A DNA stretch of 64,000 nucleotides from a virus: positions 1-64,000 of the IMG/VR virus record IMGVR_UViG_3300050132_000084. One strand, given 5' to 3'. The position numbers were made by a program, and so were the translations under genes. Shown one piece after another: positions 8,108-49,748 of the stretch (the first letter of the stretch is position 1; every line of letters starts with the position of its first letter). The notes under the pieces were generated by a model, which saw nothing but the letters and a program-made list of their open reading frames with translations, did not search any database and was not told the DNA's origin.

Positions 8108-9220
8108 ATGACGTTATTAACATTATTTCAGAACAATTTGAGTAGTGGTGGATCAGGAAACTTTAGTGTTTCATTGACTGATACCATCACTAGTTCTGAT
8201 TTAATATCCAATGTTGCTAATTTCAATGCAACATACGCCGATCCCACAATAACAAGTAGTGATACACTATCGGAAATAATGGCTGCAACTGATGCCGTTA
8301 CTGATAGTGCTACAATATCAGATATCAATTCATCTGGCCTTGGTCTATCATTGACTGATAGTGCTACAATTTCTGACACATTCACTGAAATTATGGCAGT
8401 GACTGAATCATTGACTGATAGTGCTACAATATCAGATATTATATCCGAAATAACAGGATATCCAAAGTCAAACACTGATAGTGGTACAATTTCTGACACA
8501 TTCACTGAAATTATGGCAGTGACTGAATCATTGACTGATAGTGGTACAGCATCAGATATTATATCCGAAATAACAGGATATCCAAAGTCAAACACTGATT
8601 CAGTAACAGCATCAGACACAAATAATGCACAAATGGCAGCTACAGATATTGTATCTGATAGTGGTACAGCATCAGATATTATATCCGAAATAACAGGATA
8701 TCCAAAGTCAAACACTGATTCAGTAACAGCATCAGATATCAATTCATCTGGCCTTGGTCTATCATTGACTGATAGTGCTACAATTTCTGACACATTCACG
8801 GAAATAATGGCTGCAACAGATTCATTGACTGATAGTGATACAATTTCTGACACATTCACTGAAATTATGGCAGTGACTGAATCATTGACTGATAGTGGTA
8901 CAATTTCTGACACATTCACGGAAATAATGGCTGCAACAGATTCATTGACTGATAGTGGTACAATTTCTGACACATTTATTGTCAGTTATGCAATATCACA
9001 AAATATTGTTGATAGTATTACATCAAATGATTTGAGTTCATATGTGGCTACTTTTGTAGCTTCATTAAATGATTCAGCCACTATCAGTGATACACAATCC
9101 AATATATTTGGACGATATCTAAATATGATGGAGACAATGACCATTTCTGATACAACAACATTCACATTCTCAGGAAGTGGTTATAGTGTAAATGGATTAT
9201 TCTTCGGTACAGCATTCTAA
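8108..9220 (+). CDS. Highly repetitive protein in the wac (fibritin) position upstream of g13
   Basis: About 14 copies of a 20-aa unit (S)LTDS(A/G)TISDTFTEIMA(V/A)TE, interleaved with ISDIISEITGYPKSNTDS units. It sits immediately before the g13 homologue, as wac does in T4. Confidence 0.7.
   Translation: MTLLTLFQNNLSSGGSGNFSVSLTDTITSSDLISNVANFNATYADPTITSSDTLSEIMAATDAVTDSATISDINSSGLGLSLTDSATISDTFTEIMAVTESLTDSATISDIISEITGYPKSNTDSGTISDTFTEIMAVTESLTDSGTASDIISEITGYPKSNTDSVTASDTNNAQMAATDIVSDSGTASDIISEITGYPKSNTDSVTASDINSSGLGLSLTDSATISDTFTEIMAATDSLTDSDTISDTFTEIMAVTESLTDSGTISDTFTEIMAATDSLTDSGTISDTFIVSYAISQNIVDSITSNDLSSYVATFVASLNDSATISDTQSNIFGRYLNMMETMTISDTTTFTFSGSGYSVNGLFFGTAF
8330..8975 (+). repeat. 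60-/120-bp in-frame tandem repeat array (coding)
   Basis: Near-identical units such as tcattgactgatagtgctacaatttctgacacattcactgaaattatggcagtgactgaa recur throughout. Confidence 0.85.
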
Positions 9221-35806: not shown

Positions 35807-36342
35807 TGATTAAAATTAGAAGTATTATTGATCCATATCTTGAACAGATTATGGTTGACCTTGAAACAATTTCCACAGCAAACAATGCAGTCATTGTGTC
35901 AATTGGTGCAACACGATTCACCCTTCATGAAGGTATAATCGATAAATTCTCCATCAACGTTGATCCATTCGATGCTAAAAAATATGGACTACATATTGAT
36001 CCAGATACAATCGCATGGTGGAAAAAACAACCAAAAGAAGTTTCTGATTTATGGAAAGTGAATCCAGTACCTTTAAAAGAAGCACTAAATAAATTCGATT
36101 TATTCTATGGGCCGAAATTAATTCCTATCTATGGTAACAGTGCATCATTTGATGTTGATATTCTTGAATCATCACATAGGGCCACAAACATGGCTATACC
36201 ATGGGATTTCAGGGATGGTACATGCTTTAGAACTATCTGCAAAATGTTTCCAGATGTTGAATATGAAAGGGCAGTTGTAGCACATTCTGCTTTAGATGAT
36301 GCAATCACACAAACAAACCATTTATTGAAACTTCTTGCATGA
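35806..36342 (+). CDS. dexA: DnaQ-fold 3'-5' exonuclease (T4 DexA-like)
   Basis: Exo I motif VDLET; IAWWKKQ matches T4 DexA IEWWKNQ; Exo III motif HSALDDA. Confidence 0.7.
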   Translation: MIKIRSIIDPYLEQIMVDLETISTANNAVIVSIGATRFTLHEGIIDKFSINVDPFDAKKYGLHIDPDTIAWWKKQPKEVSDLWKVNPVPLKEALNKFDLFYGPKLIPIYGNSASFDVDILESSHRATNMAIPWDFRDGTCFRTICKMFPDVEYERAVVAHSALDDAITQTNHLLKLLA

Positions 36343-36614
36343 AGATTATTACATGGTTAGCCACATTCACAAGTATATTCGGTGTCCTTCTTTCAGCAGT
36401 AGATTTCTATCCATATTTCATTTATGTATTTCTTTTAAGTAATGTTCTATGGATTTATATTGGTGTAAATTGGCAAAAGTTTCCAATAATAGTTTCAAAT
36501 TCCGTTGTACTTTTTATTAATCTTGTAGGTTTATTTTTGGAGTTTCATGAACAAATTTCTTGTTTCTGTATTACTCATTTTAGCAACGCTGTCTGGATGT
36601 TCCACTACACCTAG
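36339..36614 (+). CDS. Small polytopic membrane protein
   Basis: Three hydrophobic helices; ATGA-coupled to dexA. Confidence 0.5.
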   Translation: MKIITWLATFTSIFGVLLSAVDFYPYFIYVFLLSNVLWIYIGVNWQKFPIIVSNSVVLFINLVGLFLEFHEQISCFCITHFSNAVWMFHYT

Positions 36615-37155
36615 ACCTTATGATTCAATTGAATATCTTGCCAATGTAAGTGTCACTGTTGATACCACAAGGGCCATTCATGAATGTCACAATCGAGATA
36701 GATTAGAATTTTATAATTATCTTCATCAAGCAAATTCCGAGAGTATGTTACTGGATGAATTTGCTAAAGGTAAATCAGATTCAACTAAGCTGATTACTGC
36801 TGTTGATATTGAACGAAGCATGTTTAATGAAATCATTGTTCGTGGTGATTTCAGTGAATCATACTGTGTTGAAAAATTGACTAACATTCAGGCTGTATCA
36901 CGTATTCTTGCACGTGTAGATGGTGGATCAGGAAACTTCAACATGTGCGACGGTGGTATCAAGGAACGATATACTCTATTCTCACAAAGTTATGCCAATG
37001 GTGATATCACTGTATCAGAATACAAGGAATTGGTTACTGATGTATTAAAGCTGGATAAAGTTGATACTAGTGGTTGTAGTATTGAATCAAAGCGTAAATT
37101 GTTGGATGACCTTCAGTTTATTGAATCTATTGCCCCTACAATTATGAAACTATGA
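36547..37155 (+). CDS. Lipoprotein
   Basis: Signal peptide with lipobox MNKFLVSVLLILATLSGC; RBS ggag upstream. Confidence 0.7.
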   Translation: MNKFLVSVLLILATLSGCSTTPRPYDSIEYLANVSVTVDTTRAIHECHNRDRLEFYNYLHQANSESMLLDEFAKGKSDSTKLITAVDIERSMFNEIIVRGDFSESYCVEKLTNIQAVSRILARVDGGSGNFNMCDGGIKERYTLFSQSYANGDITVSEYKELVTDVLKLDKVDTSGCSIESKRKLLDDLQFIESIAPTIMKL

Positions 37156-37394
37156 AAACATCATTTACAAAAGAACCACCATCAGAACAACAGAAGGTTA
37201 GTGATGTAGTATCCAAGAAATATCAGGAACTAACACAATTCATGAATCGTAAGGCACGGCGGTCTAAGAATGGCAAGAAACAATTAATGTATGCCCAACA
37301 TGCTGCAATCACTGCTGGTGTACAGTATCTTAAAGATTTGCATAAGGATGACGGTGTACAAGAAGGAAAAGACAATGGATCAGTTGCATCATGA
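37152..37394 (+). CDS. Hypothetical small basic protein
   Basis: ATGA-coupled at both ends. The N-terminus MKTSFTKE only weakly resembles the CTS leader. Confidence 0.55.
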   Translation: MKTSFTKEPPSEQQKVSDVVSKKYQELTQFMNRKARRSKNGKKQLMYAQHAAITAGVQYLKDLHKDDGVQEGKDNGSVAS

Positions 37395-38425
37395 GTAAAT
37401 TTGTAATTCTAGGTGATACTCACTTTTCTGTTCGGAATGGCGATAAACGATTCGTTAATTATTTCGATAAGGTTTATACTGATTGGTTCTTTCCTGAATT
37501 GAAGAAGCGTGGACTAAAGAAAATCATTCAGGTTGGTGATCTATTCGACAAACGTACTGGTAATGATTCATTCGCCGTGTCAGAATCCAAGCGATACTTC
37601 TTCGATAAGTTATGTCAAGATGGTTGTTACATGTGGACTCTACTCGGAAACCATGATTTATATTTTAAGAATTCATTGGATGTTAGTTCACCAGAACTTT
37701 TATTGGATGGATACCAAAATATTACCATCATTAATAAACCAACCAAGATTGGAAGTCTAGATTTCATTCCATGGATTTGTGATGAAAATCGTGCTAAAGT
37801 ATTCCAATTCATCAAGGACAGTGAGTCTAAATTCTGCTTCGGCCATTTTGAAATCACTGGCTTCAGCATGTACAAGGGTGTCAAAGGACAAGATGGATTA
37901 TCACCAACGATCTTCAACAAGTATGATGGTGTCTTTAGCGGTCATTATCACACTGCTAGTAAACAATTAAATATTCAATACACTGGTAGTCCGGCAGAAT
38001 ACACATGGTCTGATGCAGATGATCCAAAGGGATTCTGGATATTTGATGACGAAACTGGTGAAACAGAATTCGTAGTTAATCCATTCACCATGTTCACCAA
38101 GGTGTTCTATGATGAAGAAGATATTGGTAAATTTGACTTTACTACATTAACAGACAAATTTGTTCGCTTGTATGTGATCAACAATAAAGACCTGAAGAAG
38201 TATGATAAATTTGTTCAAAATATCAACGAATCAAATCCACATGAACTAAAAATTATTGAAGAAGGTCAATCTGCTGTGTCGGATGTTGATACAGAAAATA
38301 TCGATGTCCGTGATACACCATCATTGATTGAACAATATATTGATGGACTGGAAACTGATCTTGATAAGGAACGATTGAAAAAGATGATGCGTAAATTATA
38401 TGTTGAAGCACAAAGTGAGGAATAA
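37391..38425 (+). CDS. g47: Recombination nuclease subunit, T4 gp47 (Mre11/SbcD-like)
   Basis: ILGDTHF, GDLFDKR, LLGNHDLYFKN, IPWICDEN, FGHFEI.GF, FSGHYH and DPKGFWIFDDET parallel T4 gp47. Confidence 0.92.
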   Translation: MSKFVILGDTHFSVRNGDKRFVNYFDKVYTDWFFPELKKRGLKKIIQVGDLFDKRTGNDSFAVSESKRYFFDKLCQDGCYMWTLLGNHDLYFKNSLDVSSPELLLDGYQNITIINKPTKIGSLDFIPWICDENRAKVFQFIKDSESKFCFGHFEITGFSMYKGVKGQDGLSPTIFNKYDGVFSGHYHTASKQLNIQYTGSPAEYTWSDADDPKGFWIFDDETGETEFVVNPFTMFTKVFYDEEDIGKFDFTTLTDKFVRLYVINNKDLKKYDKFVQNINESNPHELKIIEEGQSAVSDVDTENIDVRDTPSLIEQYIDGLETDLDKERLKKMMRKLYVEAQSEE

Positions 38426-40143
38426 TGCATATCATATTTAAAACCATAACATACCAGAACTTTTTATCTACAGGTTCAAATGGTGTCACGATTCAATTGA
38501 ATCAAAATCCAACCACCCTGATAACAGGGAAAAATGGTGCAGGAAAATCATCGTGGGTGGATGCATTGTGCTACGCATTATTCAATAAGCCACATCGTGA
38601 AGTAAATCTTCCAGCATTGGTCAATTCTGTTAATGGTAAGAAAATGCTGGTTGAACTTGAATTCTCTATTGGTACACATGAATTCAAAATTCGCCGTGGT
38701 GCTAAACCATCCGTGTTTGAAATATTCAAGAATGGTGAACTAATCCCACAAGATGCAGCCAATGGTGATTATCAAAAATATCTGGAATCACAAATCCTTG
38801 GGATGAACCATAAAACATTCTGTCAATTGGTCATCATCGGGAAAGCATCATACACACCATTTATGAAATTATCATCGGCTGTCCGTAGGGATAAGATTGA
38901 AGATTTCTTGGATATTCGTATATTTTCCAACATGGCTGAAATAATCAAAGAAGATGTGTCATCATCAAAACAATTAATCACAGGAATCGAATCTGAGTAC
39001 ACCATTCACAAAAATAAAATCGATGTACAACAATCTTACATCAATACTTTATCTGCTGACCATACGAAAAAGACTGAAGAAACACAGTTGCAGATCAGTT
39101 CTATATTCACCAAGATTAAAGAACTAGAAGCCGAAGTAGAAATACAACAAAAGGCTGTGGCTGAATTGTTACCAACTGTTGCAGATCATAAATCAGTATC
39201 GGAAAAGTCCACCAAGATGAATGAACTGAAATACAAGCTGTCCACCAACGAGAAATCATTGTTGACAGAATTAGCATTTTTTGAGAATAATAATGACTGT
39301 CCAACATGTAAGCAGCATATTGATAATGAATTCAAGTCCGAAATAGTTATACAAAAATCGGACAAGAAGGATGAACTTGAAAAAGCATTGGTTTCATTGA
39401 ATACACAAGTTTCAACGGTTGCTGAAAGAATCAAAGATATTGAATTAGTGAATCGTGAAATCACCAAGATCAACAATGAAATACGAGACCTACAAGGCTC
39501 TATCACATCAGAACAGCGTTACCTACAGAAACTTCAAAAAGAATTGACTGAGGCCGCGCAAAGTGATTCCAATCTTGATGTAGAACGTGACAAGCTGAAA
39601 CAGTATGCAATCACTGCAATGAATATCATCGAACGAAAAAATGTATTGATGACAGATAGACAATATATTGATTTATGTGTCAAGTTGCTGAAGGATACTG
39701 CAATCAAGGCTGAAGTCGTGGCACAATACTTACCTATCATCAATAAATTGATTGCAAAGTATTTGGAGAAACTTGAATTTTTTACAACATTTGATTTAGA
39801 TACAAGTTTCAATGAATCAATATTGAGTCGTGATCGTGATTTGTTTTCGTACAATTTATTTTCGATAGGTGAACAATCGAAAATTGACTTGTCATTATTG
39901 TTCACATGGATTACAATTACCACATTGAAAAATACAGTAAGTACGAATATTATTGTGTTTGATGAAATGTTGGATTCCGGTTTGGACTCTGATTCCAGTT
40001 CATTGGTGATGGATATTTTGCTGGAAGATTTTGGTAATCGCAACATTGTGATTATATCGCACTACCCTGATTTGTATACTGATAAAGTAAAACAACACAT
40101 TAAATTTGCTAAAGTTGGCAATTATTCTGAAATTGTGGTATAA
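38425..40143 (+). CDS. g46: Recombination ATPase subunit, T4 gp46 (Rad50/SbcC-like)
   Basis: Walker A GKNGAGKSS, a long central coiled coil with a CPTC zinc hook, and a C-terminal signature/Walker B region (IIVFDEMLDSGLD). Confidence 0.9.
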   Translation: MHIIFKTITYQNFLSTGSNGVTIQLNQNPTTLITGKNGAGKSSWVDALCYALFNKPHREVNLPALVNSVNGKKMLVELEFSIGTHEFKIRRGAKPSVFEIFKNGELIPQDAANGDYQKYLESQILGMNHKTFCQLVIIGKASYTPFMKLSSAVRRDKIEDFLDIRIFSNMAEIIKEDVSSSKQLITGIESEYTIHKNKIDVQQSYINTLSADHTKKTEETQLQISSIFTKIKELEAEVEIQQKAVAELLPTVADHKSVSEKSTKMNELKYKLSTNEKSLLTELAFFENNNDCPTCKQHIDNEFKSEIVIQKSDKKDELEKALVSLNTQVSTVAERIKDIELVNREITKINNEIRDLQGSITSEQRYLQKLQKELTEAAQSDSNLDVERDKLKQYAITAMNIIERKNVLMTDRQYIDLCVKLLKDTAIKAEVVAQYLPIINKLIAKYLEKLEFFTTFDLDTSFNESILSRDRDLFSYNLFSIGEQSKIDLSLLFTWITITTLKNTVSTNIIVFDEMLDSGLDSDSSSLVMDILLEDFGNRNIVIISHYPDLYTDKVKQHIKFAKVGNYSEIVV

Positions 40144-40144
40144 T
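40115..40144 (+). promoter_or_regulatory. Early promoter (TTGGCA-N18-TATAAT, TGTGGTATAATGGTTGTAT box)
   Basis: ttgtggtataatggttgtat at 40133-40152 is identical over 20 nt to the promoter at 48420. Confidence 0.6.
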
Positions 40145-40173
40145 GGTTGTATTGAATATTTTTGGGAATAATT

Positions 40174-40449
40174 ATGGAAGATTTTAACTTGCCTTGGCAT
40201 TTCATTTTAACTACATATAATAATCAATTAATTTCTCTTAAAGAAAGTTCATTGGGGAAATTGTTGTGGAAGCGTAATAATGAAAAACAAACCAAGATAG
40301 ACAACATTAATTTAAAACTTACAGAATTAAGACAACATAAAGATGATGTAAATAACCAAATTGAATCATTAGTGAAACAATTAAAAAAACTTGGGTATCC
40401 GTATTTTATGGTTGACAACGGATGCAATGGGCCTATAATCACTATATAG
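40174..40449 (+). CDS. Hypothetical small coiled-coil protein (last AT-rich gene before the GC-rich island)
   Basis: First ATG is at 40174 (the track start at 40162 is TTG). The C-terminus ...GYPYFMVDNG is echoed by ...KPYFAVDER just inside the island. Confidence 0.5.
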   Translation: MEDFNLPWHFILTTYNNQLISLKESSLGKLLWKRNNEKQTKIDNINLKLTELRQHKDDVNNQIESLVKQLKKLGYPYFMVDNGCNGPIITI

Positions 40450-40490
40450 ATAAACCGTATTTTGCGGTTGATGAAAGGGAGCGAGGCGTG

Positions 40491-40721
40491 ATGGCCGTAT
40501 ATCCAATACGCGATGAAATTGTAACTGCGCGAAAGTTTCACTTTTGCGATGCCTGTGAGATTTTCCAAGGTGCTGACATTCCAGAGTCTTACTTAACGCC
40601 GGATGAACTGCTGATTGTTCAAGCAGCGAGATCAGATAACTGGAAGATCAAGCCTGCGGCAATCGAGGATATGGCGAAATTGACAGATGCCGCCGATTCA
40701 ATTAAATCAGACGAATGTTGA
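40491..40721 (+). CDS. Hypothetical protein, first gene of GC-rich island
   Basis: ATG preceded by gggagcgagg. An alternative longer ORF starts at 40422. Composition switches to GC-rich here. Confidence 0.5.
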   Translation: MAVYPIRDEIVTARKFHFCDACEIFQGADIPESYLTPDELLIVQAARSDNWKIKPAAIEDMAKLTDAADSIKSDEC

Positions 40722-40733
40722 AGGAGAAGCAAA

Positions 40734-40982
40734 ATGAGAAAAAATTACGATATGCTGCCGGAAGACTTAGCAAAGATCAAAGAGGCATGTAAGCCAGAGC
40801 CGTTAATTGTGCTTCAGTGCGGGATGCCAAGATCGCTGCAAGAGCGCGCTAATTCCGCATGGAAGGAATTAGGTGAAAGAATGGGATTCGACCACATGAC
40901 CGTGCGGCCACGCAGCGGAAGCGAACGGTTCTTTAGCGCGGAAGAAACTATTCACCCGACCGAATCGCGGAGTCTGTCATGA
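40734..40982 (+). CDS. Hypothetical protein (GC-rich island)
   Basis: RBS aaggag 7 nt upstream; ATGA-coupled to the next gene. Confidence 0.6.
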   Translation: MRKNYDMLPEDLAKIKEACKPEPLIVLQCGMPRSLQERANSAWKELGERMGFDHMTVRPRSGSERFFSAEETIHPTESRSLS

Positions 40983-41242
40983 CCAGACTAACCGAAGCTG
41001 AGCAACAGATGCGCGATAACCTGGCCGATATTCTTGTCGAAGCCGGATGGTACCGCGACACCATCGACGGCAATCATCGACTTGGCGAAGCTATTCCAGC
41101 GATCATGCGGGAGCTTGAGATTAAGCCGCAAGGCGATGCACTCGATGCGATGAAACTTGCGATTACGGCTCTAGTCGCAGTTACAAATAACGCGCCGGAA
41201 TCGATTGCCGCGATGGACGCGATGGACGCGCCAAAGTCATGA
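40979..41242 (+). CDS. Hypothetical protein (GC-rich island)
   Basis: ATGA overlaps at both ends. Confidence 0.6.
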   Translation: MTRLTEAEQQMRDNLADILVEAGWYRDTIDGNHRLGEAIPAIMRELEIKPQGDALDAMKLAITALVAVTNNAPESIAAMDAMDAPKS

Positions 41243-41556
41243 CAACCTACTCAATCCGCTGCCGCAACAGCCGTTGTCGTCATCGCCGCGTGTCGAAGAC
41301 GCACCCTGACGATTACAAGATCGTGCCGAAATGCGCGGCCTGCGGTGAGCGGCGCGGCAATATCGTCGGACAAGATGAGTCTGGCGAGGATTCGATTGCA
41401 GGACACAAGCGCATGTGCACGATGTTTGAGGCGCATGGCAAACAATTGGATGATGACGATGAGGCCGGGAAACTGCTTGCTGAAGGAGATCCTGCCTTGC
41501 AGGACGACACTGACTACACCCCGAACGATAACTCAACATGGGCACCACGATCATGA
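41239..41556 (+). CDS. Zn-ribbon protein with acidic tail (GC-rich island)
   Basis: CRNSRC...CAAC at the N-terminus; ATGA-coupled at both ends. Competing ORFs in other frames look like GC-composition artefacts. Confidence 0.5.
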   Translation: MTTYSIRCRNSRCRHRRVSKTHPDDYKIVPKCAACGERRGNIVGQDESGEDSIAGHKRMCTMFEAHGKQLDDDDEAGKLLAEGDPALQDDTDYTPNDNSTWAPRS

Positions 41557-41795
41557 AGAAAATATTTACGCAAATTATTAGAGGGTGCGGCGACCTACCT
41601 TATGTAGGCGAGCATCCCGGTACGCCGGTCATGATCCTGATGATGCTTGCCGGAGGTGGCGCAGGAATCAAAGGGGGGATGTCTGGGTTCTTGGCAGGCA
41701 TATGCTTTATGGCTGTTTTCATTTTGCCGATTTATCTATACGGCGCATGGGATAGGGCTGAATTGTCTGATGTGCTTCAAAAGGAAAACGAATGA
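41553..41795 (+). CDS. Small membrane protein, two TM helices (GC-rich island)
   Basis: PVMILMMLAGGGAGI and FLAGICFMAVFILPIYLYGAW; start chosen at the ATGA overlap. Confidence 0.55.
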   Translation: MKKIFTQIIRGCGDLPYVGEHPGTPVMILMMLAGGGAGIKGGMSGFLAGICFMAVFILPIYLYGAWDRAELSDVLQKENE

Positions 41796-42052
41796 TTGAT
41801 GATTCGGACAGATTGAAGCCATGCCCGTTTTGTGGTGGCGTGCCGCAAAGCGTTCCAACATCAAATGGTGCTAGATTTATTGAATGCACAAAATGCCACG
41901 CATCAACTAGCCTTGTGTATTCCACGGGCGAAGATTGCGCGCCGATTCTTGCAGAGAAGTGGAATAAACGCGCTTTACTGACAAGTGATTTTGGTGAAGA
42001 TGTCCGCAAATTCTCTCACCACATGGACGACAGGGGGCAAGGCTGGATATGA
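41792..42052 (+). CDS. lar: Lar-family restriction alleviation protein
   Basis: LKPCPFCGG...IECTKCHAS...AEKWNKRA fits the Lar signature CPFCGG...C..C...A...WN.R. Confidence 0.7.
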   Translation: MIDDSDRLKPCPFCGGVPQSVPTSNGARFIECTKCHASTSLVYSTGEDCAPILAEKWNKRALLTSDFGEDVRKFSHHMDDRGQGWI

Positions 42053-42101
42053 ACAGCATTTGCAAAAATACGATTTATACAACGAATAGGGAGCTACACA
42101 A

Positions 42102-42308
42102 ATGAACGAGCAAAATGACGCTTGGGTTGCAGTGAATGGCGGGATTGCAGAGATGACTGACAAAAATGAGAGCCTCGATAACCTGCGCCGGGAGTGTGAC
42201 GAAATCACAGAGCTTAACTATGCTCAATGGCTTGCTCTTGAGAATTGCAGGCTGCTTGCAAGTCGCAGTCGTAAAGAGGAATGGGCGCAGCATGTCTTGC
42301 GATTCTGA
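42102..42308 (+). CDS. Hypothetical protein (GC-rich island)
   Basis: RBS gggag upstream; 68 aa. Confidence 0.55.
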   Translation: MNEQNDAWVAVNGGIAEMTDKNESLDNLRRECDEITELNYAQWLALENCRLLASRSRKEEWAQHVLRF

Positions 42309-42319
42309 AAACTTAAATA

Positions 42320-42577
42320 ATGCCAACACTAATTAGACTAGGTGATCCCGGTTCCCATGGCGGAACCATGATTACAGCAACAGGAAATTTCACTGACGAT
42401 GGCATTCAGGTATGTGTGAATGGTGATACATATCATTGTAATGTGCATGGCAACCAAACTGTTACAGCATCGTTCAGTGGATTTTCTGCCAATGGTAAGG
42501 CCGTTCTTGTGGATGGCGATACAGCAGCTTGTGGTGCAACGATTGGCCCCGGCAGTCCAGATACAACTGCATATTAA
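42320..42577 (+). CDS. PAAR-domain protein (spike-tip; T4 gp5.4-like)
   Basis: Three GD-anchored repeats: RLGDPGSHGG, CVNGDTYHCNVHG and VLVDGDTAACGATIG; 85 aa, the typical PAAR size. Confidence 0.65.
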   Translation: MPTLIRLGDPGSHGGTMITATGNFTDDGIQVCVNGDTYHCNVHGNQTVTASFSGFSANGKAVLVDGDTAACGATIGPGSPDTTAY

Positions 42578-42585
42578 AGGAAAAT

Positions 42586-42747
42586 ATGTATTACGATATG
42601 AAAATTTATGATCGGTATGAAGGCATGATTCAAATAACAGTTTCGGCAAATTCAGATAGTGAAGCAATTGAAGAAGCTACAATATCAGCGGCTGAGAATG
42701 GTTGTATGGAAGTAACAGATATAGAAATAATTGACTGCTACGATTAA
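42586..42747 (+). CDS. Hypothetical small acidic protein
   Basis: ATG after aaggaaaat; AT-rich again. Confidence 0.45.
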   Translation: MYYDMKIYDRYEGMIQITVSANSDSEAIEEATISAAENGCMEVTDIEIIDCYD

Positions 42748-42759
42748 TTGTGGTATAAT
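42731..42759 (+). promoter_or_regulatory. Early promoter (TTGACT-N17-TATAAT, TGTGGTATAATG box)
   Basis: ttgact at 42731-42736; tgtggtataatg at 42749-42760. Confidence 0.7.
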
Positions 42760-42785
42760 GTTGTTTAAATTATGAAAGGTAAGTG

Positions 42786-43715
42786 ATGTCATTAACAGTA
42801 AGTGAACTTCAAAGTATTGTCAAGCGTAATTCAAATCATATTCGGAATCTAGAGAAAGACCGAAAAGACCGAAAAGACTTCATTTGTGAAACCAAATCAC
42901 GATTTAAAGTCCCTGATTCAATGTATACAGCTTTGCGGAAGAAAACCAAAGAGTTAAAAGTTGATGCATTGCATCAACGTCTTCTTAAACAAGAGTTGAA
43001 ATCATTATATCAACTTGTTCCAAAATCAAGTGAAGTCCCCAAAATCGAAGCACCAAAATATAGTGTTTTCTATGTAGAGGTATTTGGAGAAGAACATTCA
43101 AATCTGGTTCAACAAATTATGTTTAATCTTGGTTATCGTTGGGCATCAGGGAGTGTCAACCCATTATCTGAATTTAGTCATTGTTATCTTCAGACATTTG
43201 AAGATGGAACGATTAAGGCACAGTTTCATAAAGAGTTTCTAGTAGGTGTTTGTAAAATATTAACTACAGATGGACAATTGACAACTTTTCCTGATTCAGT
43301 AGAAATCTATGAACCACCAGAAGTAGACCATCCTGTGGCTGTGAATAAAGTTGAAGTACCAAATGTTGTAGGTGATATTCATAGTGATGCCATGGGTTCC
43401 GGTGCACGATATAATAATGGGAAACCAGATTATTCATTGATTCCATTGTGTACAATGGATGGTGAGGCACGTGTGTGGATGAAGGGCACAGAAAAATATA
43501 CTGCTTGGAACTGGATGCGTGGAATGAAATGGTCTGTTCCACTAGCTAGTGCACTTAGACATTTATCAAAGTGGCAAAGTGGCGAAGATATTGATGAAGA
43601 ATCTGGTGAATCACATTTAGATCACATTATGTGTAATATCAGAATGCTAAAATTATACACAAAAACATTTACTGAAGGTGATGATCGACCAAAAAAATGG
43701 TTACATTATGCGTAA
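42786..43715 (+). CDS. Two-domain protein; C-terminal DUF5664-like (dATP/dGTP pyrophosphohydrolase-type) domain
   Basis: GARYNNGKPDYSLIPL...KGTEKYTAWNWMRGMKWS..LASALRHLSKWQSGEDIDEESGESHLDHIMCN matches my recollection of KYD.GK..L.P...KY...NW..G......SA.RH.....GE..D.ESG..HL.H. Confidence 0.5.
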   Translation: MSLTVSELQSIVKRNSNHIRNLEKDRKDRKDFICETKSRFKVPDSMYTALRKKTKELKVDALHQRLLKQELKSLYQLVPKSSEVPKIEAPKYSVFYVEVFGEEHSNLVQQIMFNLGYRWASGSVNPLSEFSHCYLQTFEDGTIKAQFHKEFLVGVCKILTTDGQLTTFPDSVEIYEPPEVDHPVAVNKVEVPNVVGDIHSDAMGSGARYNNGKPDYSLIPLCTMDGEARVWMKGTEKYTAWNWMRGMKWSVPLASALRHLSKWQSGEDIDEESGESHLDHIMCNIRMLKLYTKTFTEGDDRPKKWLHYA

Positions 43716-43914
43716 AATCAAAAAACTACTGAAGCAAATTGGACTTATTCTGACACCAATTGTTCTATTATATGGACATTTTGTGTATCTTGCACCAATG
43801 TTATTTGCACATACATCGTCTGCTGCATTCAATATGGCTGTTGGTATCACTATTTTCCTAGTGTTGTTAGAAGCGATGGCAATTACTATGGTGAACGGTG
43901 GTGCTGTGCGATGA
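43708..43914 (+). CDS. Small membrane protein
   Basis: Two hydrophobic helices; an alternative start lies at 43678. Confidence 0.5.
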   Translation: MRKIKKLLKQIGLILTPIVLLYGHFVYLAPMLFAHTSSAAFNMAVGITIFLVLLEAMAITMVNGGAVR

Positions 43915-44489
43915 TAAATGATTATACTGAAAAACAAATTCAACCAAAGATATCAACAAAAGAAGCTATCTGTCAACTTGTTCATGGTACTGGAATTTTT
44001 GAAAGTCAAAGAGGCCAATTAAAGTATTTCTACATTCTAAATACGATTGAAGATGGTCTACCGTCTATCAGGGCATTGAGTGTTAATCCAGATGATTTAG
44101 ACAAACTATCAGGTCTAACATTCATCGATTACGCGAAAAATACAAAAATTCCAGTACCACGGTTTCAAGATGAAGCCTATGTTGATTATACTGAAAAACA
44201 AATTCAACCAAAGATATCAACAAAAGAAGCTATCTGTCAACTTGTTCATGTTGTAAATCATGATCGAGACTATGCTTGGGTATGGCAATGTAGTCTAGCC
44301 ATGGCAATTCTAGATGAAGGTGGTTCACACGAATTATCTAATCGTGCAGCAGCAAGATTCCTACAGCAAATATTCGCAGTAGACATCACGAAATTCGCAG
44401 AGTTCAAAGACTTTGAGGAACAATGGAAGAAAGATGCATCTAAAAAATATTATGAAGATATAGATATTGACATTGATGATGGATGTTAA
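43911..44489 (+). CDS. Hypothetical protein containing an in-frame 68-bp direct repeat pair
   Basis: DYTEKQIQPKISTKEAICQLVH occurs twice, at aa 4-25 and aa 92-113. Confidence 0.6.
   Translation: MINDYTEKQIQPKISTKEAICQLVHGTGIFESQRGQLKYFYILNTIEDGLPSIRALSVNPDDLDKLSGLTFIDYAKNTKIPVPRFQDEAYVDYTEKQIQPKISTKEAICQLVHVVNHDRDYAWVWQCSLAMAILDEGGSHELSNRAAARFLQQIFAVDITKFAEFKDFEEQWKKDASKKYYEDIDIDIDDGC
43919..43986 (+). repeat. 68-bp perfect direct repeat, copy 1
   Basis: tgattatactgaaaaacaaattcaaccaaagatatcaacaaaagaagctatctgtcaacttgttcatg. Confidence 0.9.
44183..44250 (+). repeat. 68-bp perfect direct repeat, copy 2
   Basis: Identical to 43919-43986; the offset is 264 nt (88 codons). Confidence 0.9.
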
Positions 44490-44523: not shown

Positions 44524-45180
44524 ATGAAATTTTCAGCACAAACGATTCAAATCCTTAAAAACTTTGCAACAATCAATCAAAACATCATGTTGCGTCCCGG
44601 ATCAGAATTGGCTACAATCTCCACAGGGAAGAATATTTTCGCCACAGCTACCATCGCAGAAGAAATTCCAATTGAAGTCCCTATCTATGATCTAACCAAT
44701 CTACTAGCCCTTCTATCATTGACACAGGAACCAGAAATTGATTTTGGTGAAAAGTCATTGATTATTTCCAAGGATGGTGCAACATTCGAATACTATTATT
44801 CCAGCCCTGATATCATTGTGGCACCACCACAAAAGAAAATCGTGGTGGATGAACACTTTACATTCACACTGGCTAAAGATGATATTACGACCATTCTGAA
44901 GGCTGCTGCTGTCATGAGTGCACCAACATTATCATTCGTGACTAAGGGTGGTAAGGTATTCGTAACAGTGGGTGATCCTAAAACAAAAAGTTCCAATTCA
45001 TATAAGAAGCAAATTGGTGAATCTGAACATGAGTTTGATGTTCAAATCGGTGTTGAAATGATCAAGGTGATTCCAGAAAACTACACAGTGGCATTGTCCA
45101 AGAAGAAATTTATTCACTTCCGTAACGATGAACGTGGCCTGAAATATTGGTTGGCTGCTGGCCCACAATCAACAATTTGA
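44524..45180 (+). CDS. g45: Sliding clamp, T4 gp45 homologue
   Basis: MKFSAQTIQILKNFATINQNIMLRPG against T4 MKLSKDTTALLKNFATINSGIMLKSG; similar size. Confidence 0.93.
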   Translation: MKFSAQTIQILKNFATINQNIMLRPGSELATISTGKNIFATATIAEEIPIEVPIYDLTNLLALLSLTQEPEIDFGEKSLIISKDGATFEYYYSSPDIIVAPPQKKIVVDEHFTFTLAKDDITTILKAAAVMSAPTLSFVTKGGKVFVTVGDPKTKSSNSYKKQIGESEHEFDVQIGVEMIKVIPENYTVALSKKKFIHFRNDERGLKYWLAAGPQSTI

Positions 45181-45187
45181 GTTTGTT

Positions 45188-46138
45188 ATGGAAGAAACAT
45201 ATTTCATAGAAAACAATTTATTCATCTGGACGGAACTTTACCGGCCACTGAATATTGATTATTGTATCCTACCAGATTCAATGAAAGTTGAATTCAATGG
45301 TCTAATCAAAAAGAAGGTACTACCAAACCTGATTCTGAAGGGTACAGCAGGGGTAGGTAAGACAACCATCGCTCGTGCACTATGTGAACAGCTTGGTTGT
45401 GATTATATCATTGTGAACGGTTCTGGTGGTCTTAATGTGGATGAACTACGGGTTCGTGTTACAGATTTCGTTACATCAGTTTCATTAAGTGGAAAACGTA
45501 AATGCGTTCTAGTGGATGAAGCTGACGGAATGAGCCATAAAGTTCAGGATGAACTACGGGGATTCATCGAAGCACATACTAAAAATGTGTTCTTTATCTT
45601 CACATGTAACTTTGCAAATAAGATTATCACACCAATCCATTCACGTTGTTCGGTGATTGACTTTAGGTTAGCTAAAGAAGATAAACCGGCAATGGCTAAA
45701 AAGTTTATGGAACGTGTGAAGGAAATCCTGAAGATTGAGAACGTAACATTCGATAACAAGGTGCTTGCACAAGTTGTCATGAATTATTTTCCAGATTTTC
45801 GTCGCACACTAAATGAACTGCAACGGTATTCTGCTGGTGGTACAATCGATGCTGGTATATTGACTAAATCTGTTGAATCAGATGTGTCAGATTTGATTTT
45901 GACTATCAAGGAAAAATCATTCAAGAAAATGAGGCAGTGGTGCGAAAACAACAGTGATGGTGATTTCAATCTGATTTATTCTAAACTATTTGATTCACTA
46001 TTAGATCAGGTGAATGAAGTACCACAGGCCGTTCTGATCATTTCTGAAGCAGCATATAGGGAATACTTTTGTGTGAATAAAGTGATTAATCTTGTGGCAT
46101 GTTGTACAGAATTGATGGGTTCAGTAAGTTTCAAATGA
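45188..46138 (+). CDS. g44: Clamp loader large subunit, T4 gp44 homologue (AAA+)
   Basis: Walker A GTAGVGKTT, Walker B VLVDEADG and sensor-1 region FIFTCN. Confidence 0.9.
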   Translation: MEETYFIENNLFIWTELYRPLNIDYCILPDSMKVEFNGLIKKKVLPNLILKGTAGVGKTTIARALCEQLGCDYIIVNGSGGLNVDELRVRVTDFVTSVSLSGKRKCVLVDEADGMSHKVQDELRGFIEAHTKNVFFIFTCNFANKIITPIHSRCSVIDFRLAKEDKPAMAKKFMERVKEILKIENVTFDNKVLAQVVMNYFPDFRRTLNELQRYSAGGTIDAGILTKSVESDVSDLILTIKEKSFKKMRQWCENNSDGDFNLIYSKLFDSLLDQVNEVPQAVLIISEAAYREYFCVNKVINLVACCTELMGSVSFK

Positions 46139-48109: not shown

Positions 48110-48406
48110 ATGATCGTAGTAATGCGTATGTTGAATGGTGAAGAAATTATTGGTAAAATTGCAACTGATAAAGATGGATCAACAACAATTGAAAATCCTT
48201 GTATTATTGATACAGTAATTTCTGGTGCAGGTCAAGTTAAAGCTAACATGATTCCTACTGCATTATTCTGTAAAGATCGTACTGTTTTATTGAACCAACA
48301 TTCTGTAATGTGGTCAAATGAAGCCACAGATGAAATGGCTAATGCATATAATGCTAAATACAGTACAATCATCACTCCACCCACAAAAAGTATTCTTCAT
48401 AGTTGA
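48110..48406 (+). CDS. Hypothetical protein (possibly Sm-like fold)
   Basis: The N-terminus VVMRMLNGEEIIGKI resembles Sm/LSm beta-strand motifs. Weak. Confidence 0.55.
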   Translation: MIVVMRMLNGEEIIGKIATDKDGSTTIENPCIIDTVISGAGQVKANMIPTALFCKDRTVLLNQHSVMWSNEATDEMANAYNAKYSTIITPPTKSILHS

Positions 48407-48431
48407 CATCACAAAATAGTTGTGGTATAAT
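48403..48431 (+). promoter_or_regulatory. Perfect consensus early promoter (TTGACA-N17-TATAAT with TG extension) driving tRNA genes
   Basis: ttgaca at 48403-48408; tgtggtataatg at 48421-48432. The first tRNA starts 19 nt after the -10 box. Confidence 0.8.
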
Positions 48432-48449: not shown

Positions 48450-48527
48450 CTCTGTGTCGTACAGTCTGGTCTAGTATACGTGCTTTGGGAGCATGGGACA
48501 TTGGTTCAAATCCAGTCGCGGAGACCA
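48450..48527 (+). tRNA. tRNA-Pro (anticodon UGG), CCA encoded
   Basis: Hand fold: acceptor ctctgtg/cgcggag (two G-U pairs), D stem gtac/gtat, anticodon stem cgtgc/gcatg, loop ttTGGga, T arm attgg-ttcaaat-ccagt, A73 and C1-G72 as in bacterial tRNA-Pro. Confidence 0.8.
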
Positions 48528-48543: not shown

Positions 48544-48629
48544 GCCGGGTTCGCATAGTGGGATTGCGCTTGACTTGTAATCAAGAAGGGGAAACCCTAA
48601 GTGGTGTTCGATTCACCAATCCGGCACCA
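48544..48629 (+). tRNA. Class-II-shaped tRNA (3-bp D stem, 16-nt variable arm) with anticodon UGU (Thr), CCA encoded
   Basis: Hand fold: acceptor gccgggt/atccggc, D stem gca/tgc, perfect anticodon stem cttga/tcaag, loop ctTGTaa, variable arm aaggggaaaccctaag (ggg/ccc stem), T arm tggtg-ttcgatt-cacca, A73. Confidence 0.7.
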
Positions 48630-49673: not shown

Positions 49674-49748
49674 TTGACCATAACTTAATGGTTAAAGTCG
49701 TGGATTGTGATTCCGCTTATGTGAGTTCGATTCTCACTGGTCAACCCA
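49674..49748 (+). tRNA. tRNA-His (anticodon GUG), CCA encoded, no encoded G-1
   Basis: Hand fold: acceptor ttgacca/tggtcaa, D stem actt/aagt, anticodon stem gtgga/tccgc, loop ttGTGat, T arm gtgag-ttcgatt-ctcac, C73. The base at -1 is T. Confidence 0.8.

Follow-up and report, generated by a model that had tools for sequence, protein, structure and literature searches.

A GC-rich block of seven small genes lies between genes 46 and 45

We analyzed a 64,000-nucleotide (nt) stretch of viral DNA (IMG/VR record IMGVR_UViG_3300050132_000084, positions 1 to 64,000; hereafter, the window, to which coordinates refer unless a contig is named) and, within it, a block of seven small genes, A to G, that lies between the genes for gp46 and gp45 of a T4-like phage. 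All seven are on the plus strand: A (40491-40721, 76 amino acids, aa), B (40734-40982, 82 aa), C (40979-41242, 87 aa), D (41239-41556, 105 aa), E (41553-41795, 80 aa), F (41792-42052, 86 aa), and G (42102-42308, 68 aa), with a 49-nt non-coding spacer (42053-42101) between F and G. The block is preceded by orf0 (40174-40449, 91 aa), a native, AT-rich gene with a G+C content (GC) of 0.28, and followed by a PAAR gene (42320-42577, 85 aa), both also on the plus strand. Successive genes overlap through ATGA at four junctions in a row (B/C, C/D, D/E, and E/F), and GGAG-type ribosome-binding sites precede B and G, in agreement with an earlier reading of the DNA letters (the original prediction), which described seven small genes mostly chained by translational coupling. 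We regard the block as probably a very recently captured mosaic of early, or nin-type, genes from unrelated phages of ~50% GC that co-occur with this T4-like phage; horizontal transfer itself is strongly supported by the sequence comparisons.

The block stands out sharply in composition. The GC of 40450-42577 is 0.495, compared to 0.362 for the rest of the window, and same-length windows elsewhere have a mean GC of 0.362 with a standard deviation of 0.019 and a maximum of 0.413 (z ~7). In 300-nt windows, the GC stays between 0.27 and 0.37 until 40450, reaches 0.57 at 41050-41500, runs at 0.46 to 0.49 to ~42550, and then drops to 0.33, and every other 1-kb bin in the 64 kb is at or below 0.422. 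The sharp jump that had been proposed from hand counts is thus real and the only one of its kind in the window, and the two counts themselves (34/60 G+C at 41221-41280 and 18/60 at 39001-39060 in g46) are exact. A maximum-likelihood fit with two change points placed the segment at 40464-42560, with a GC of 0.499 against 0.347 and a log-likelihood gain of 70.

We also scored synonymous codons in each gene as a per-codon log-likelihood ratio of an island model to a native model, using a leave-one-out procedure. This ratio was positive in each of A to G (+0.09 to +0.41) and native-like in PAAR (-0.13), orf0 (-0.135), gp46 (-0.125), gp45 (-0.116), and open reading frame (ORF) I (-0.137). Likewise, the GC at third codon positions (GC3) is 0.42 to 0.60 in A to G, compared to 0.29 in PAAR, 0.27 in orf0, and 0.21 to 0.36 in surrounding genes. 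Because of these GC3 values and synonymous-codon scores, we classify A to G as foreign and PAAR as native. Amino acid composition was considered as a cause of the high GC and ruled out for A to G by the same two measures. The GC of PAAR, which had been described as intermediate, is explained by Gly/Ala-rich codon positions 1 and 2, so this gene does not belong to the recent import. The seven island genes all end in TGA, a stop codon used by 7/34 native long ORFs (Fisher p = 1.5e-4). The recent import is therefore the segment from ~40464 to 42308/42317, roughly 1.85 kb with a GC of 0.504, that carries genes A to G.

Homologs of the block occur in metagenomic phage contigs of higher GC

DNA searches of the region and of the island, run in near and distant modes, gave no match among 50,697 cultured phage genomes, and a tblastn search of the same genomes with A to G concatenated gave no match at E <= 1e-3. 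Homologs were found in metagenomic contigs with GC values of 0.48 to 0.65, which carry genes including NinB, YqaJ, RecT, Rha, ERF, SSB, PolA, VRR-NUC-like, terS/HNH, and DNA methylase; none of these donor-type contigs has a T4 core gene. The closest is L024 (3.9 kb, GC3 of 0.44 to 0.57 throughout, with a DNA methylase gene at its end), which is 100% identical in DNA to window positions 41352-42042 (691 nt) and 40636-41195 (560 nt). Two further contigs, L027 and L028, are 98 to 100% identical to those two L024-matching segments. A scan for a longer donor contig returned only a weak, irrelevant match.

More distant homologs of single genes or gene pairs are spread over unrelated contexts. Residues 1-40 of D have 77.5% aa identity to genes in L006 (GC 0.53, beside DUF2800 and Enc34 ssDNA-binding genes) and in L007/L008 (GC 0.65, beside a primase-polymerase gene), and residues 37-76 have 80% aa identity to a gene in L005 (GC 0.51), which neighbors ERF, SSB, and PolB exonuclease genes. 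The IMG/VR contig L015 (GC 0.52), with a family-A DNA polymerase and a pentapeptide-repeat protein, contains the 3' half of F (96.6% nt identity over 149 nt), an A-type gene (83.5% nt identity), and the start of G. B and C together have 92.6% nt identity over 403 nt to L019/L020 (GC 0.52 and 0.49; YqaJ, KTSC, and RHH genes), and C has 86.8% nt identity to L017/L018 (GC 0.53; NinB and lysozyme genes). B is 57% identical in aa to a gene in L016 (GC 0.55), which has a Pfam match to Rha and RecT- and YqaJ-like genes by reading of translations, and 63% identical to one in L014 (GC 0.56), where terS and HNH genes were recognized in the same way. The resemblance to nin or early accessory regions of higher-GC phages that had been noted is borne out by these neighbors (NinB, RecT/YqaJ, Rha, ERF/SSB, PolA, and DNA methylase), and the donor lineage left open at that stage now resolves to a pool of metagenomic phage contigs with GC 0.48 to 0.65.

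Of the sites at which a G+C difference separates the window from its donor homologs, 95 carry A/T in the window and 83 carry G/C (p = 0.41). Because the island shows no measurable drift toward AT, its transfer into the T4-like phage is recent.

We also considered whether the block came from a bacterial host chromosome rather than from other phages. One B homolog lies on a contig binned as an Akkermansiaceae metagenome-assembled genome (MAG), and one B-C copy lies beside an IS1595-family transposase, as an origin of this kind would allow. However, that MAG contig carries genes for a terminase small subunit and an HNH endonuclease (read from translations) and is phage-like, and it was the only hit in a scan of 185,579 species genomes. 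All other homologs are found in phage replication, recombination, nin, or lysis modules, and the Lar matches in cultured collections are all in phages. A chromosomal source is therefore very improbable, and we favor capture from other phages.

Two observations concern the contents of the donor-type contigs. In L015, a pentapeptide-repeat protein gene (990-1604; PF00805, 1.2e-28) is directly upstream of the F-A-G-type genes; some pentapeptide-repeat proteins are DNA mimics. In L019, which has YqaJ and KTSC genes and a GC of 0.52, a gene at 8525-8803 encodes the Pfam T4_Y16D domain, a hint that small genes may also pass from T4-like phages into this pool.

Gene order is permuted and most genes are truncated or chimeric

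The gene order in L024 is D''-E-F'(108 aa)-A'(90 aa)-G'(99 aa)-B-C'(97 aa), of which the window order, A-B-C-D-E-F-G, is a circular permutation. Compared with the full-length copies in donor-type contigs, five genes (A, C, D, F, and G) have been truncated or fused, and only B and E are intact. The idea that the genes were imported as one operon therefore holds in part: they are contiguous in L024, but their order is circularly permuted and five of the seven are truncated or fused.

Gene A is a chimera. Its best start is 40491 and not 40422, as the former has a ribosome-binding site and homologs open with M-S/A-V-Y-P-I-R-D. Residues 1-55 belong to the phrog_13613 family and the tail has been replaced, so that A matches only positions 5-54 of the 91 in this profile (3.3e-11), compared to positions 5-90 for the full-length A-type copy in L015 (1.4e-27). 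Its first 55 codons are the 5' end of an A-type gene, and the rest is the sequence found ahead of B in L024; the join is at a 17-nt repeat, ATAACTGGAAGATCAAG (40636-40652), of which both copies are found in L024; the two BLAST matches overlap across 40636-40656. In DNA, A is 83.5% identical to L015 (158 nt) and 84 to 87.5% identical to L024, L011, and L028.

The intact gene B has an identical protein on 7 further contigs from different samples and a 96% identical one in L019/L020. In C, the first ~72 residues are conserved and the C terminus is swapped after 41195; its homologs adjoin NinB in L017/L018 and occur in the YqaJ-bearing L019. B and C gave no family match, and their AlphaFold models (B from a single sequence, pLDDT 51.5; C from a 6-sequence alignment, three to four helices, pLDDT 57.6) are, at pLDDT 51 to 58, below the quality needed for interpretation or a fold search.

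Gene D is a mosaic of a Cys4 zinc-ribbon N terminus (residues 1-40) and an acidic C-terminal stretch of 69 residues, matching the zinc-ribbon/acidic-tail protein described earlier. Those 69 residues are identical to the end of the 121-aa L024 gene D'', whose N terminus differs. The intact gene E is 100% identical in L011 and L024 and had no family match. It is predicted to encode a small membrane protein: the Kyte-Doolittle 19-residue maximum is 2.16, with qualifying windows that begin at residues 39-48. Of the two transmembrane segments that had been proposed, one helix is clear; a shorter, Gly-rich hydrophobic segment may plausibly be the second, though with less certainty.

The full 108-aa form of F is present in L024, L011, L027, and L028, and the window copy lacks the C terminus, which was removed by a ~305-nt deletion that also took most of a second A-type gene. 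By alignment, the F-G spacer is the leftover 3' end of this second A-type gene. The spacer has 9 differences from L002 in 53 aligned columns, compared to 2/606 in the flanking coding DNA (Fisher p = 3.5e-9); the two coding differences between the window and L002/L003, across E, F, and G, are both synonymous. This contrast could reflect either constraint on F and G or swapping of spacer alleles.

Gene G is truncated by a ~80-nt deletion that also generates its TGA stop; a form of 99 to 104 aa is found in L011 and L024. Residues 24-68 of G (42171-42308) form a conserved 45-residue module, which occurs at varied positions in ~90 representative protein clusters (P0017-P0106) at 55 to 78% identity, in proteins of 71 to 762 aa, with the consensus ECDAITELNHAQWLALENVRLLAARxRKEEWAQHxLRFC. 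As the module had no Pfam, PHROG, or PDB match, it is an undescribed phage domain.

Other contigs carry other states of the block. L028 and L011 have G at both ends (G'-B-C-deltaD-E-F'-A'-G'), and the arrangement in the window can be derived from an order of this type through three deletions. D was lost by two separate deletions, at 41210-41492 in L011 and at 41317-41516 in L028. In L011, a scaffold with an N gap that we used with caution, the long form of G is joined to PAAR. L002 and L003 are 98% identical to the window, with coding changes that are all synonymous. In L012, other cargo precedes a PAAR region that is otherwise 96.5% identical. Each contig that we examined has its own gene order and content. 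Together, the alignments show a block that is being reshaped by short-repeat and illegitimate deletions.

A short shared motif and a repeat scar mark the block junctions

The right junction is a 10-nt AT-rich motif, AAAACTTAAA (42308-42317), which is present once in the window and is common to donor-type and T4-type contexts. Shared sequence has its exact left edge at this motif, which follows four upstream contexts (the truncated G of the window, the long G of L011, unrelated cargo of GC 0.46 in L012, and the IS1595 side of L025) and precedes two downstream contexts, PAAR for T4-type contigs and ATAACTGGAAG...B for donor-type ones. The aligned contexts show that the right-hand join is a 10-nt AT-rich microhomology.

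At the left junction, homology to donor-type A genes begins at 40497 and the GC change point is at ~40464. An imperfect 17-nt direct repeat (40399-40415 and 40455-40471, copies 56 nt apart) brackets a 12/12 sigma-70 consensus promoter, TTGACA-16-TATAAT (40412-40439). Block-wise shuffles produced ~0.1 such 17-nt repeat per region, and deleting one repeat copy plus the spacer (40399-40454) would join orf0 to A in frame. The left-hand join is thus shown to have the form of a short repeat scar that carries a predicted sigma-70 promoter.

L025 (1114-2001, minus strand, and 2066-2772) has an IS1595/ISXO2-family transposase, flanked on one side by a trypsin-like protease gene that is AT-rich (GC3 0.32) and on the other by a B-C' cassette. 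The cassette is 100% identical to L024, and the join is exactly at AAAACTTAAA; either transposase-assisted cassette movement or mis-assembly could account for this contig.

The placement of AAAACTTAAA at the edge of four upstream and two downstream contexts, the circular permutation, and the presence of G at both ends of some copies led us to consider that cassettes, rather than moving by random illegitimate recombination, pass between unrelated phage families by exchange at a defined AT-rich boundary, possibly with a circular intermediate. We consider this quite improbable. If true, it would amount to mini-circle or cassette exchange across phage families, a cross-family analogue of the PeSL mini-circles discussed below.

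Another alternative is a metagenome assembly chimera, in which a GC-richer phage or bacterial piece was wrongly joined into a T4-like contig. In its favor, the DNA was recovered from a metagenome, the community shows a clearly polymorphic locus that is rich in repeats, and scaffold L011 has an N gap. However, a Logan contig that was assembled separately (SRR35930972) matches window positions 31792-43948 (12,157 nt) at 100% identity and reproduces both island junctions. The right junction, from the island to the start of PAAR, is also present in three ENA assemblies of different origin, L002, L003, and L011, which come from other samples. In addition, ORFs and ribosome-binding sites continue smoothly from one side of the joins to the other, and the block falls within a single promoter-to-promoter unit. 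We therefore find an assembly chimera barely credible.

The block lies between two early-type promoters

A native early-type promoter is found at the g46 stop codon (40115-40144, plus strand), with the sequence TTGGCA-18-TATAAT, an 11/12 consensus match, and an extended -10 element, TGTGGTATAAT, in which the TG is present. This 11-mer has exactly six copies in the window, all on the plus strand (29608, 35108, 40134, 42749, 48421, and 61191), each with a -35-like hexamer 17 to 18 nt upstream. When one mismatch is allowed, there are 11 matches, compared to 3.5 expected, and 0/100 shuffles reach 11. The TGTGGTATAAT sites are probably early promoters of the phage, as judged from this consensus. 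The unit orf0-[A-G]-PAAR-I lies between the copies at 40134 and 42749; the second copy belongs to the following native early-type promoter (42731-42759, plus strand; TTGACT-17-TATAAT with TGTGG), which has a 15-nt sequence, AATTGTGGTATAATG, in common with the first (first copy at 40131-40145).

No terminator is predicted between the promoters at 40115-40144 and 42731, including at the right end of the island, and no terminator-like site or stem-loop is predicted near either bracketing promoter; the fold of 40340-40500 is no better than that of shuffles (z = -0.01). Rfam and tRNA scans had no match inside the island. We predict that the promoter at 40115-40144 drives orf0, the island, PAAR, and ORF I, so that the block would be transcribed early, perhaps also from the left-junction promoter, which is without the TGTGG signature of the phage. 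B to F would be translated as one coupled chain through the ATGA overlaps.

Elsewhere in the window, a 12/12 consensus promoter (48403-48431) is directly upstream of genes for tRNA-Pro(TGG) (48450-48527) and tRNA-Thr(TGT) (48544-48629), and a gene for tRNA-His(GTG) is at 49674-49748.

Gene F encodes a Lar-type zinc ribbon

The presence of a Lar restriction-alleviation protein, claimed from the letters alone, is confirmed at the level of the domain. Residues 7-61 of F match PF14354 (Lar_restr_allev) over profile positions 2-58 of 58 (45.9 bits against a gathering cutoff of 28.6, E = 6.7e-12), F matches the Lar-like family PHROG 599 at 1.1e-9, and the Cys4 zinc ribbon read from the translation is intact (C11-P-F-C14 and C32-T-K-C35). 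F marginally misses the NCBIfam Lar subfamily model TIGR03655 (38.9 bits against 39.6) and clearly misses the RalR equivalog NF007260 (26.3 bits against 113). Searched alone among cultured phages, F has weak Lar-type matches in temperate phages, including Rac ralR, with a best E of 2e-4; its identity to Rac RalR is ~32% (E = 1e-2). RalR of the Escherichia coli Rac prophage is credited with restriction alleviation where King & Murray 1995 is cited in PMC4041452, and RalR is also described as a DNase toxin (PMC4041452). PADLOC, Pfam, NCBIfam, and PHROGs gave no defense or anti-defense match in the island beyond Lar, and PDB sequence searches with D, F, and the G-module profile had none below E = 0.06.

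The original prediction saw in the block a strong candidate for an anti-defense or superinfection-exclusion module. A dedicated, selected operon of this kind, in which Lar would counter type I restriction-modification, the acidic-tailed D would inhibit a target or mimic DNA, and the membrane protein E would serve in exclusion, would account for the Lar domain in F, the tight translational coupling from B to F, and the early-promoter context. It would also fit the contrast between the E-F-G coding DNA and the spacer (2/606 against 9/53 differences) and the identity of B and E across many contigs. In contrast, truncation or chimerism of five of the seven genes relative to donor-type copies, and the independent deletion of D in two variants, are not expected of such an operon. 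Order and content vary in every contig compared and the genes occur apart in other phages, so they do not form an obligate unit, and the island has no known defense or anti-defense family beyond Lar and no solved-structure sequence match for D, F, or the G module. We consider a dedicated operon unlikely. An anti-defense or exclusion role is a hypothesis suggested by one domain, the Lar domain of F, and the idea of a coordinated module is weakened because five of the seven genes are eroded.

For a recently captured mosaic, a role in accessory early host takeover can be proposed with low confidence. We tentatively rank F as the best candidate for a selectable activity, putatively type I restriction alleviation, followed, with similarly low confidence, by B and E as further genes that are likely to be functional. 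Some of the block is probably passenger DNA that is being lost, and much of it may be, because erosion is visible. F, with its Lar-type domain, B, and E are thus the genes nominated as worth testing; the block offers no further functional handle.

The interval between genes 46 and 45 is a cargo slot in a deep-branching T4-like phage

The g46-g45 interval is 4,380 nt long. The genes for gp47 (37391-38425, 344 aa) and gp46 (38425-40143, 572 aa) lie upstream of it, and those for gp45 (44524-45180, 218 aa) and gp44 (45188-46138, 316 aa) downstream, all on the plus strand. The nearest cultured gp46 proteins are 38 to 39% identical (cyanophages, Methylophilales phage Melnitz, Sinorhizobium phiN3, and Stenotrophomonas DLP_6), and searches of IMG/VR and of the metagenome collection gave relatives at 39 to 40% only; exact lookups with gp46, with orf0, and with the 99-aa A form led back only to the same contig. 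Because its gp46 relatives are only 38 to 40% identical, we place the phage as a deep-branching T4-like phage that is AT-rich (36% GC) and known from metagenomes only.

The accessory position of the block between g46 and g45 is borne out, but the description of g46-g45 as a conserved junction is not. The interval of L009, a distant relative, spans 2.7 kb without a GC jump, and its cargo, by reading of translations, includes genes for a peptide deformylase, a DUF3310-like protein, a vWA protein, and a glycosyltransferase. Melnitz has eight other cargo genes in the interval; unrelated cargo of at least 2.7 kb is present in both relatives, and DLP_6 has other cargo after g46, with no clamp gene within ~6 kb. 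None of the three shares the island cargo, and A to G are not core genes. With gene order conserved, the interval is best described from these comparisons as a cargo slot, a hyperplastic region in the sense of PMC4122927.

The native genes of the interval lie on either side of the block, and orf0, at its left, has no family match in Pfam, PHROGs, or NCBIfam scans. The PAAR gene encodes the PAAR motif domain of spike-tip proteins (PF05488, 4.2e-11, 43.4 bits against a cutoff of 27) and is kept with different upstream cargo in L012. Its best matches in cultured phages are in P2-like phages of Alphaproteobacteria (Aurantimonas AmM-1 and Rhizobium RR1-B; 38 to 41%), near baseplate genes, and no homolog was detectable in cultured T4-like phages. 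PAAR may be an older acquisition that already matches the phage in composition. ORF I (42586-42747, 53 aa; L001 gene calls) is native and ends the transcription unit, and J (42783-43715, 310 aa), K (43678-43914, 78 aa), and L (43911-44489, 192 aa) follow before gp45, all on the plus strand.

The C-terminal 100 residues of J match the N-terminal domain of dATP/dGTP diphosphohydrolase (PF18909, 1.3e-23), and DUF3310-like genes are also present in the g46-g45 interval of L009 and Melnitz. A relationship between the J domain and DUF3310, if there is one, would make this gene type the sole semi-conserved cargo item of the interval. ORF L has a perfect 68-nt direct repeat (43919-43986 and 44183-44250) with a spacing of 264 nt, or 88 codons in frame, and therefore holds the 22-residue segment DYTEKQIQPKISTKEAICQLVH twice, which reflects either a very recent internal duplication or an assembly artifact. 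Outside the interval, just upstream of uvsW, an ADP-ribosyltransferase toxin-type gene (PF03496; ~31020-31902, plus strand) adjoins an opposed ADP-ribosylglycohydrolase gene (PF03747; 32095-33159, minus strand; L001 gene calls), a predicted writer/eraser pair for ADP-ribosylation.

Origin of the block and comparison with known systems

In the history that we favor, the source would be the accessory gene pool of unrelated phages of ~50% GC, and the landing site would be the g46-g45 hyperplastic region between orf0 and PAAR. After capture, the block would have eroded through short-repeat and illegitimate deletions, with sister contigs having undergone other deletions or received different cargo. 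Several points weigh against this history or parts of it. The near-identical donor-type contigs are short (1.9 to 3.9 kb), and some donor-type contigs could be fragments of the T4-like phage's own hyperplastic-region variants. Searches for a close relative with an empty site, including exact junction strings looked for in IMG/VR, gave none, so that the insertion itself is inferred and not directly observed. The left junction is backed by the window and one Logan contig only, perhaps from the same sample, and the L011 scaffold, with its N gap, may be partly mis-joined. Early expression timing is deduced from promoter consensus only, and the assignment of function comes from one small zinc-ribbon domain that scores just below the NCBIfam Lar cutoff and whose archetype, RalR, is also reported to be a DNase toxin.

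With these points taken into account, the block provides a clean snapshot of cross-family gene flow, as 100%-identical DNA is present in a 36% GC T4-like phage and in contigs of ~50% GC with early-region genes of lambdoid type, and intermediate deletion and fusion states are seen in sister contigs. The case documents the speed at which hyperplastic cargo turns over, the formation of joins at motifs of 10 to 21 nt, and erosion after capture.

The closest known systems are the hyperplastic regions of T4-type phages and the modular shuffling of their promoter cassettes (PeSL) (Arbiol et al. 2010, PMC2839356; Comeau et al. 2014, PMC4122927). As in those regions, small genes of mostly unknown function lie between conserved core genes, their content differs between close relatives, the block is bounded by repeated near-consensus sigma-70-type early promoters, and indels and replacements fall at cassette edges. 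The circularly permuted order relative to the donor-type contig is also what passage through a circular intermediate would give. In contrast to PeSLs, the promoters here are without a stem-loop or terminator partner, so that half of the PeSL definition applies, and the crossovers are at a 10-nt AT-rich motif and a 17-nt repeat rather than in promoters. Unlike typical hyperplastic cargo, the genes come from compositionally distinct phages that do not look T4-like, and part of the DNA is still 100% identical.

The cargo itself resembles the nin and early accessory regions of other phages, in that homologs of A to G are found among NinB, RecT/YqaJ, ERF/SSB, Rha, and DNA methylase genes, and it shares with lambdoid and temperate accessory regions the small ATGA-chained ORFs and a mosaicism below the gene level. 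It is like a moron in having a composition distinct from that of the surrounding genome. However, the genes here are in a lytic-type T4-like genome, which sets them apart from both nin regions and morons, and the island is without a predicted terminator and has only a candidate promoter of its own (40412-40439), so that it would probably fall outside the strict definition of a moron. F resembles Lar/RalR in its Lar-type Cys4 zinc ribbon and, like the archetype, has its source in a phage accessory region, but it differs in its ~32% identity to Rac RalR, in scores that fall under the equivalog and subfamily cutoffs, and in its truncated C terminus. Thus, the block is an instance of a known behavior, in which T4-type hyperplastic regions draw on the nin-type gene pool of other phages, and not a new kind of system.

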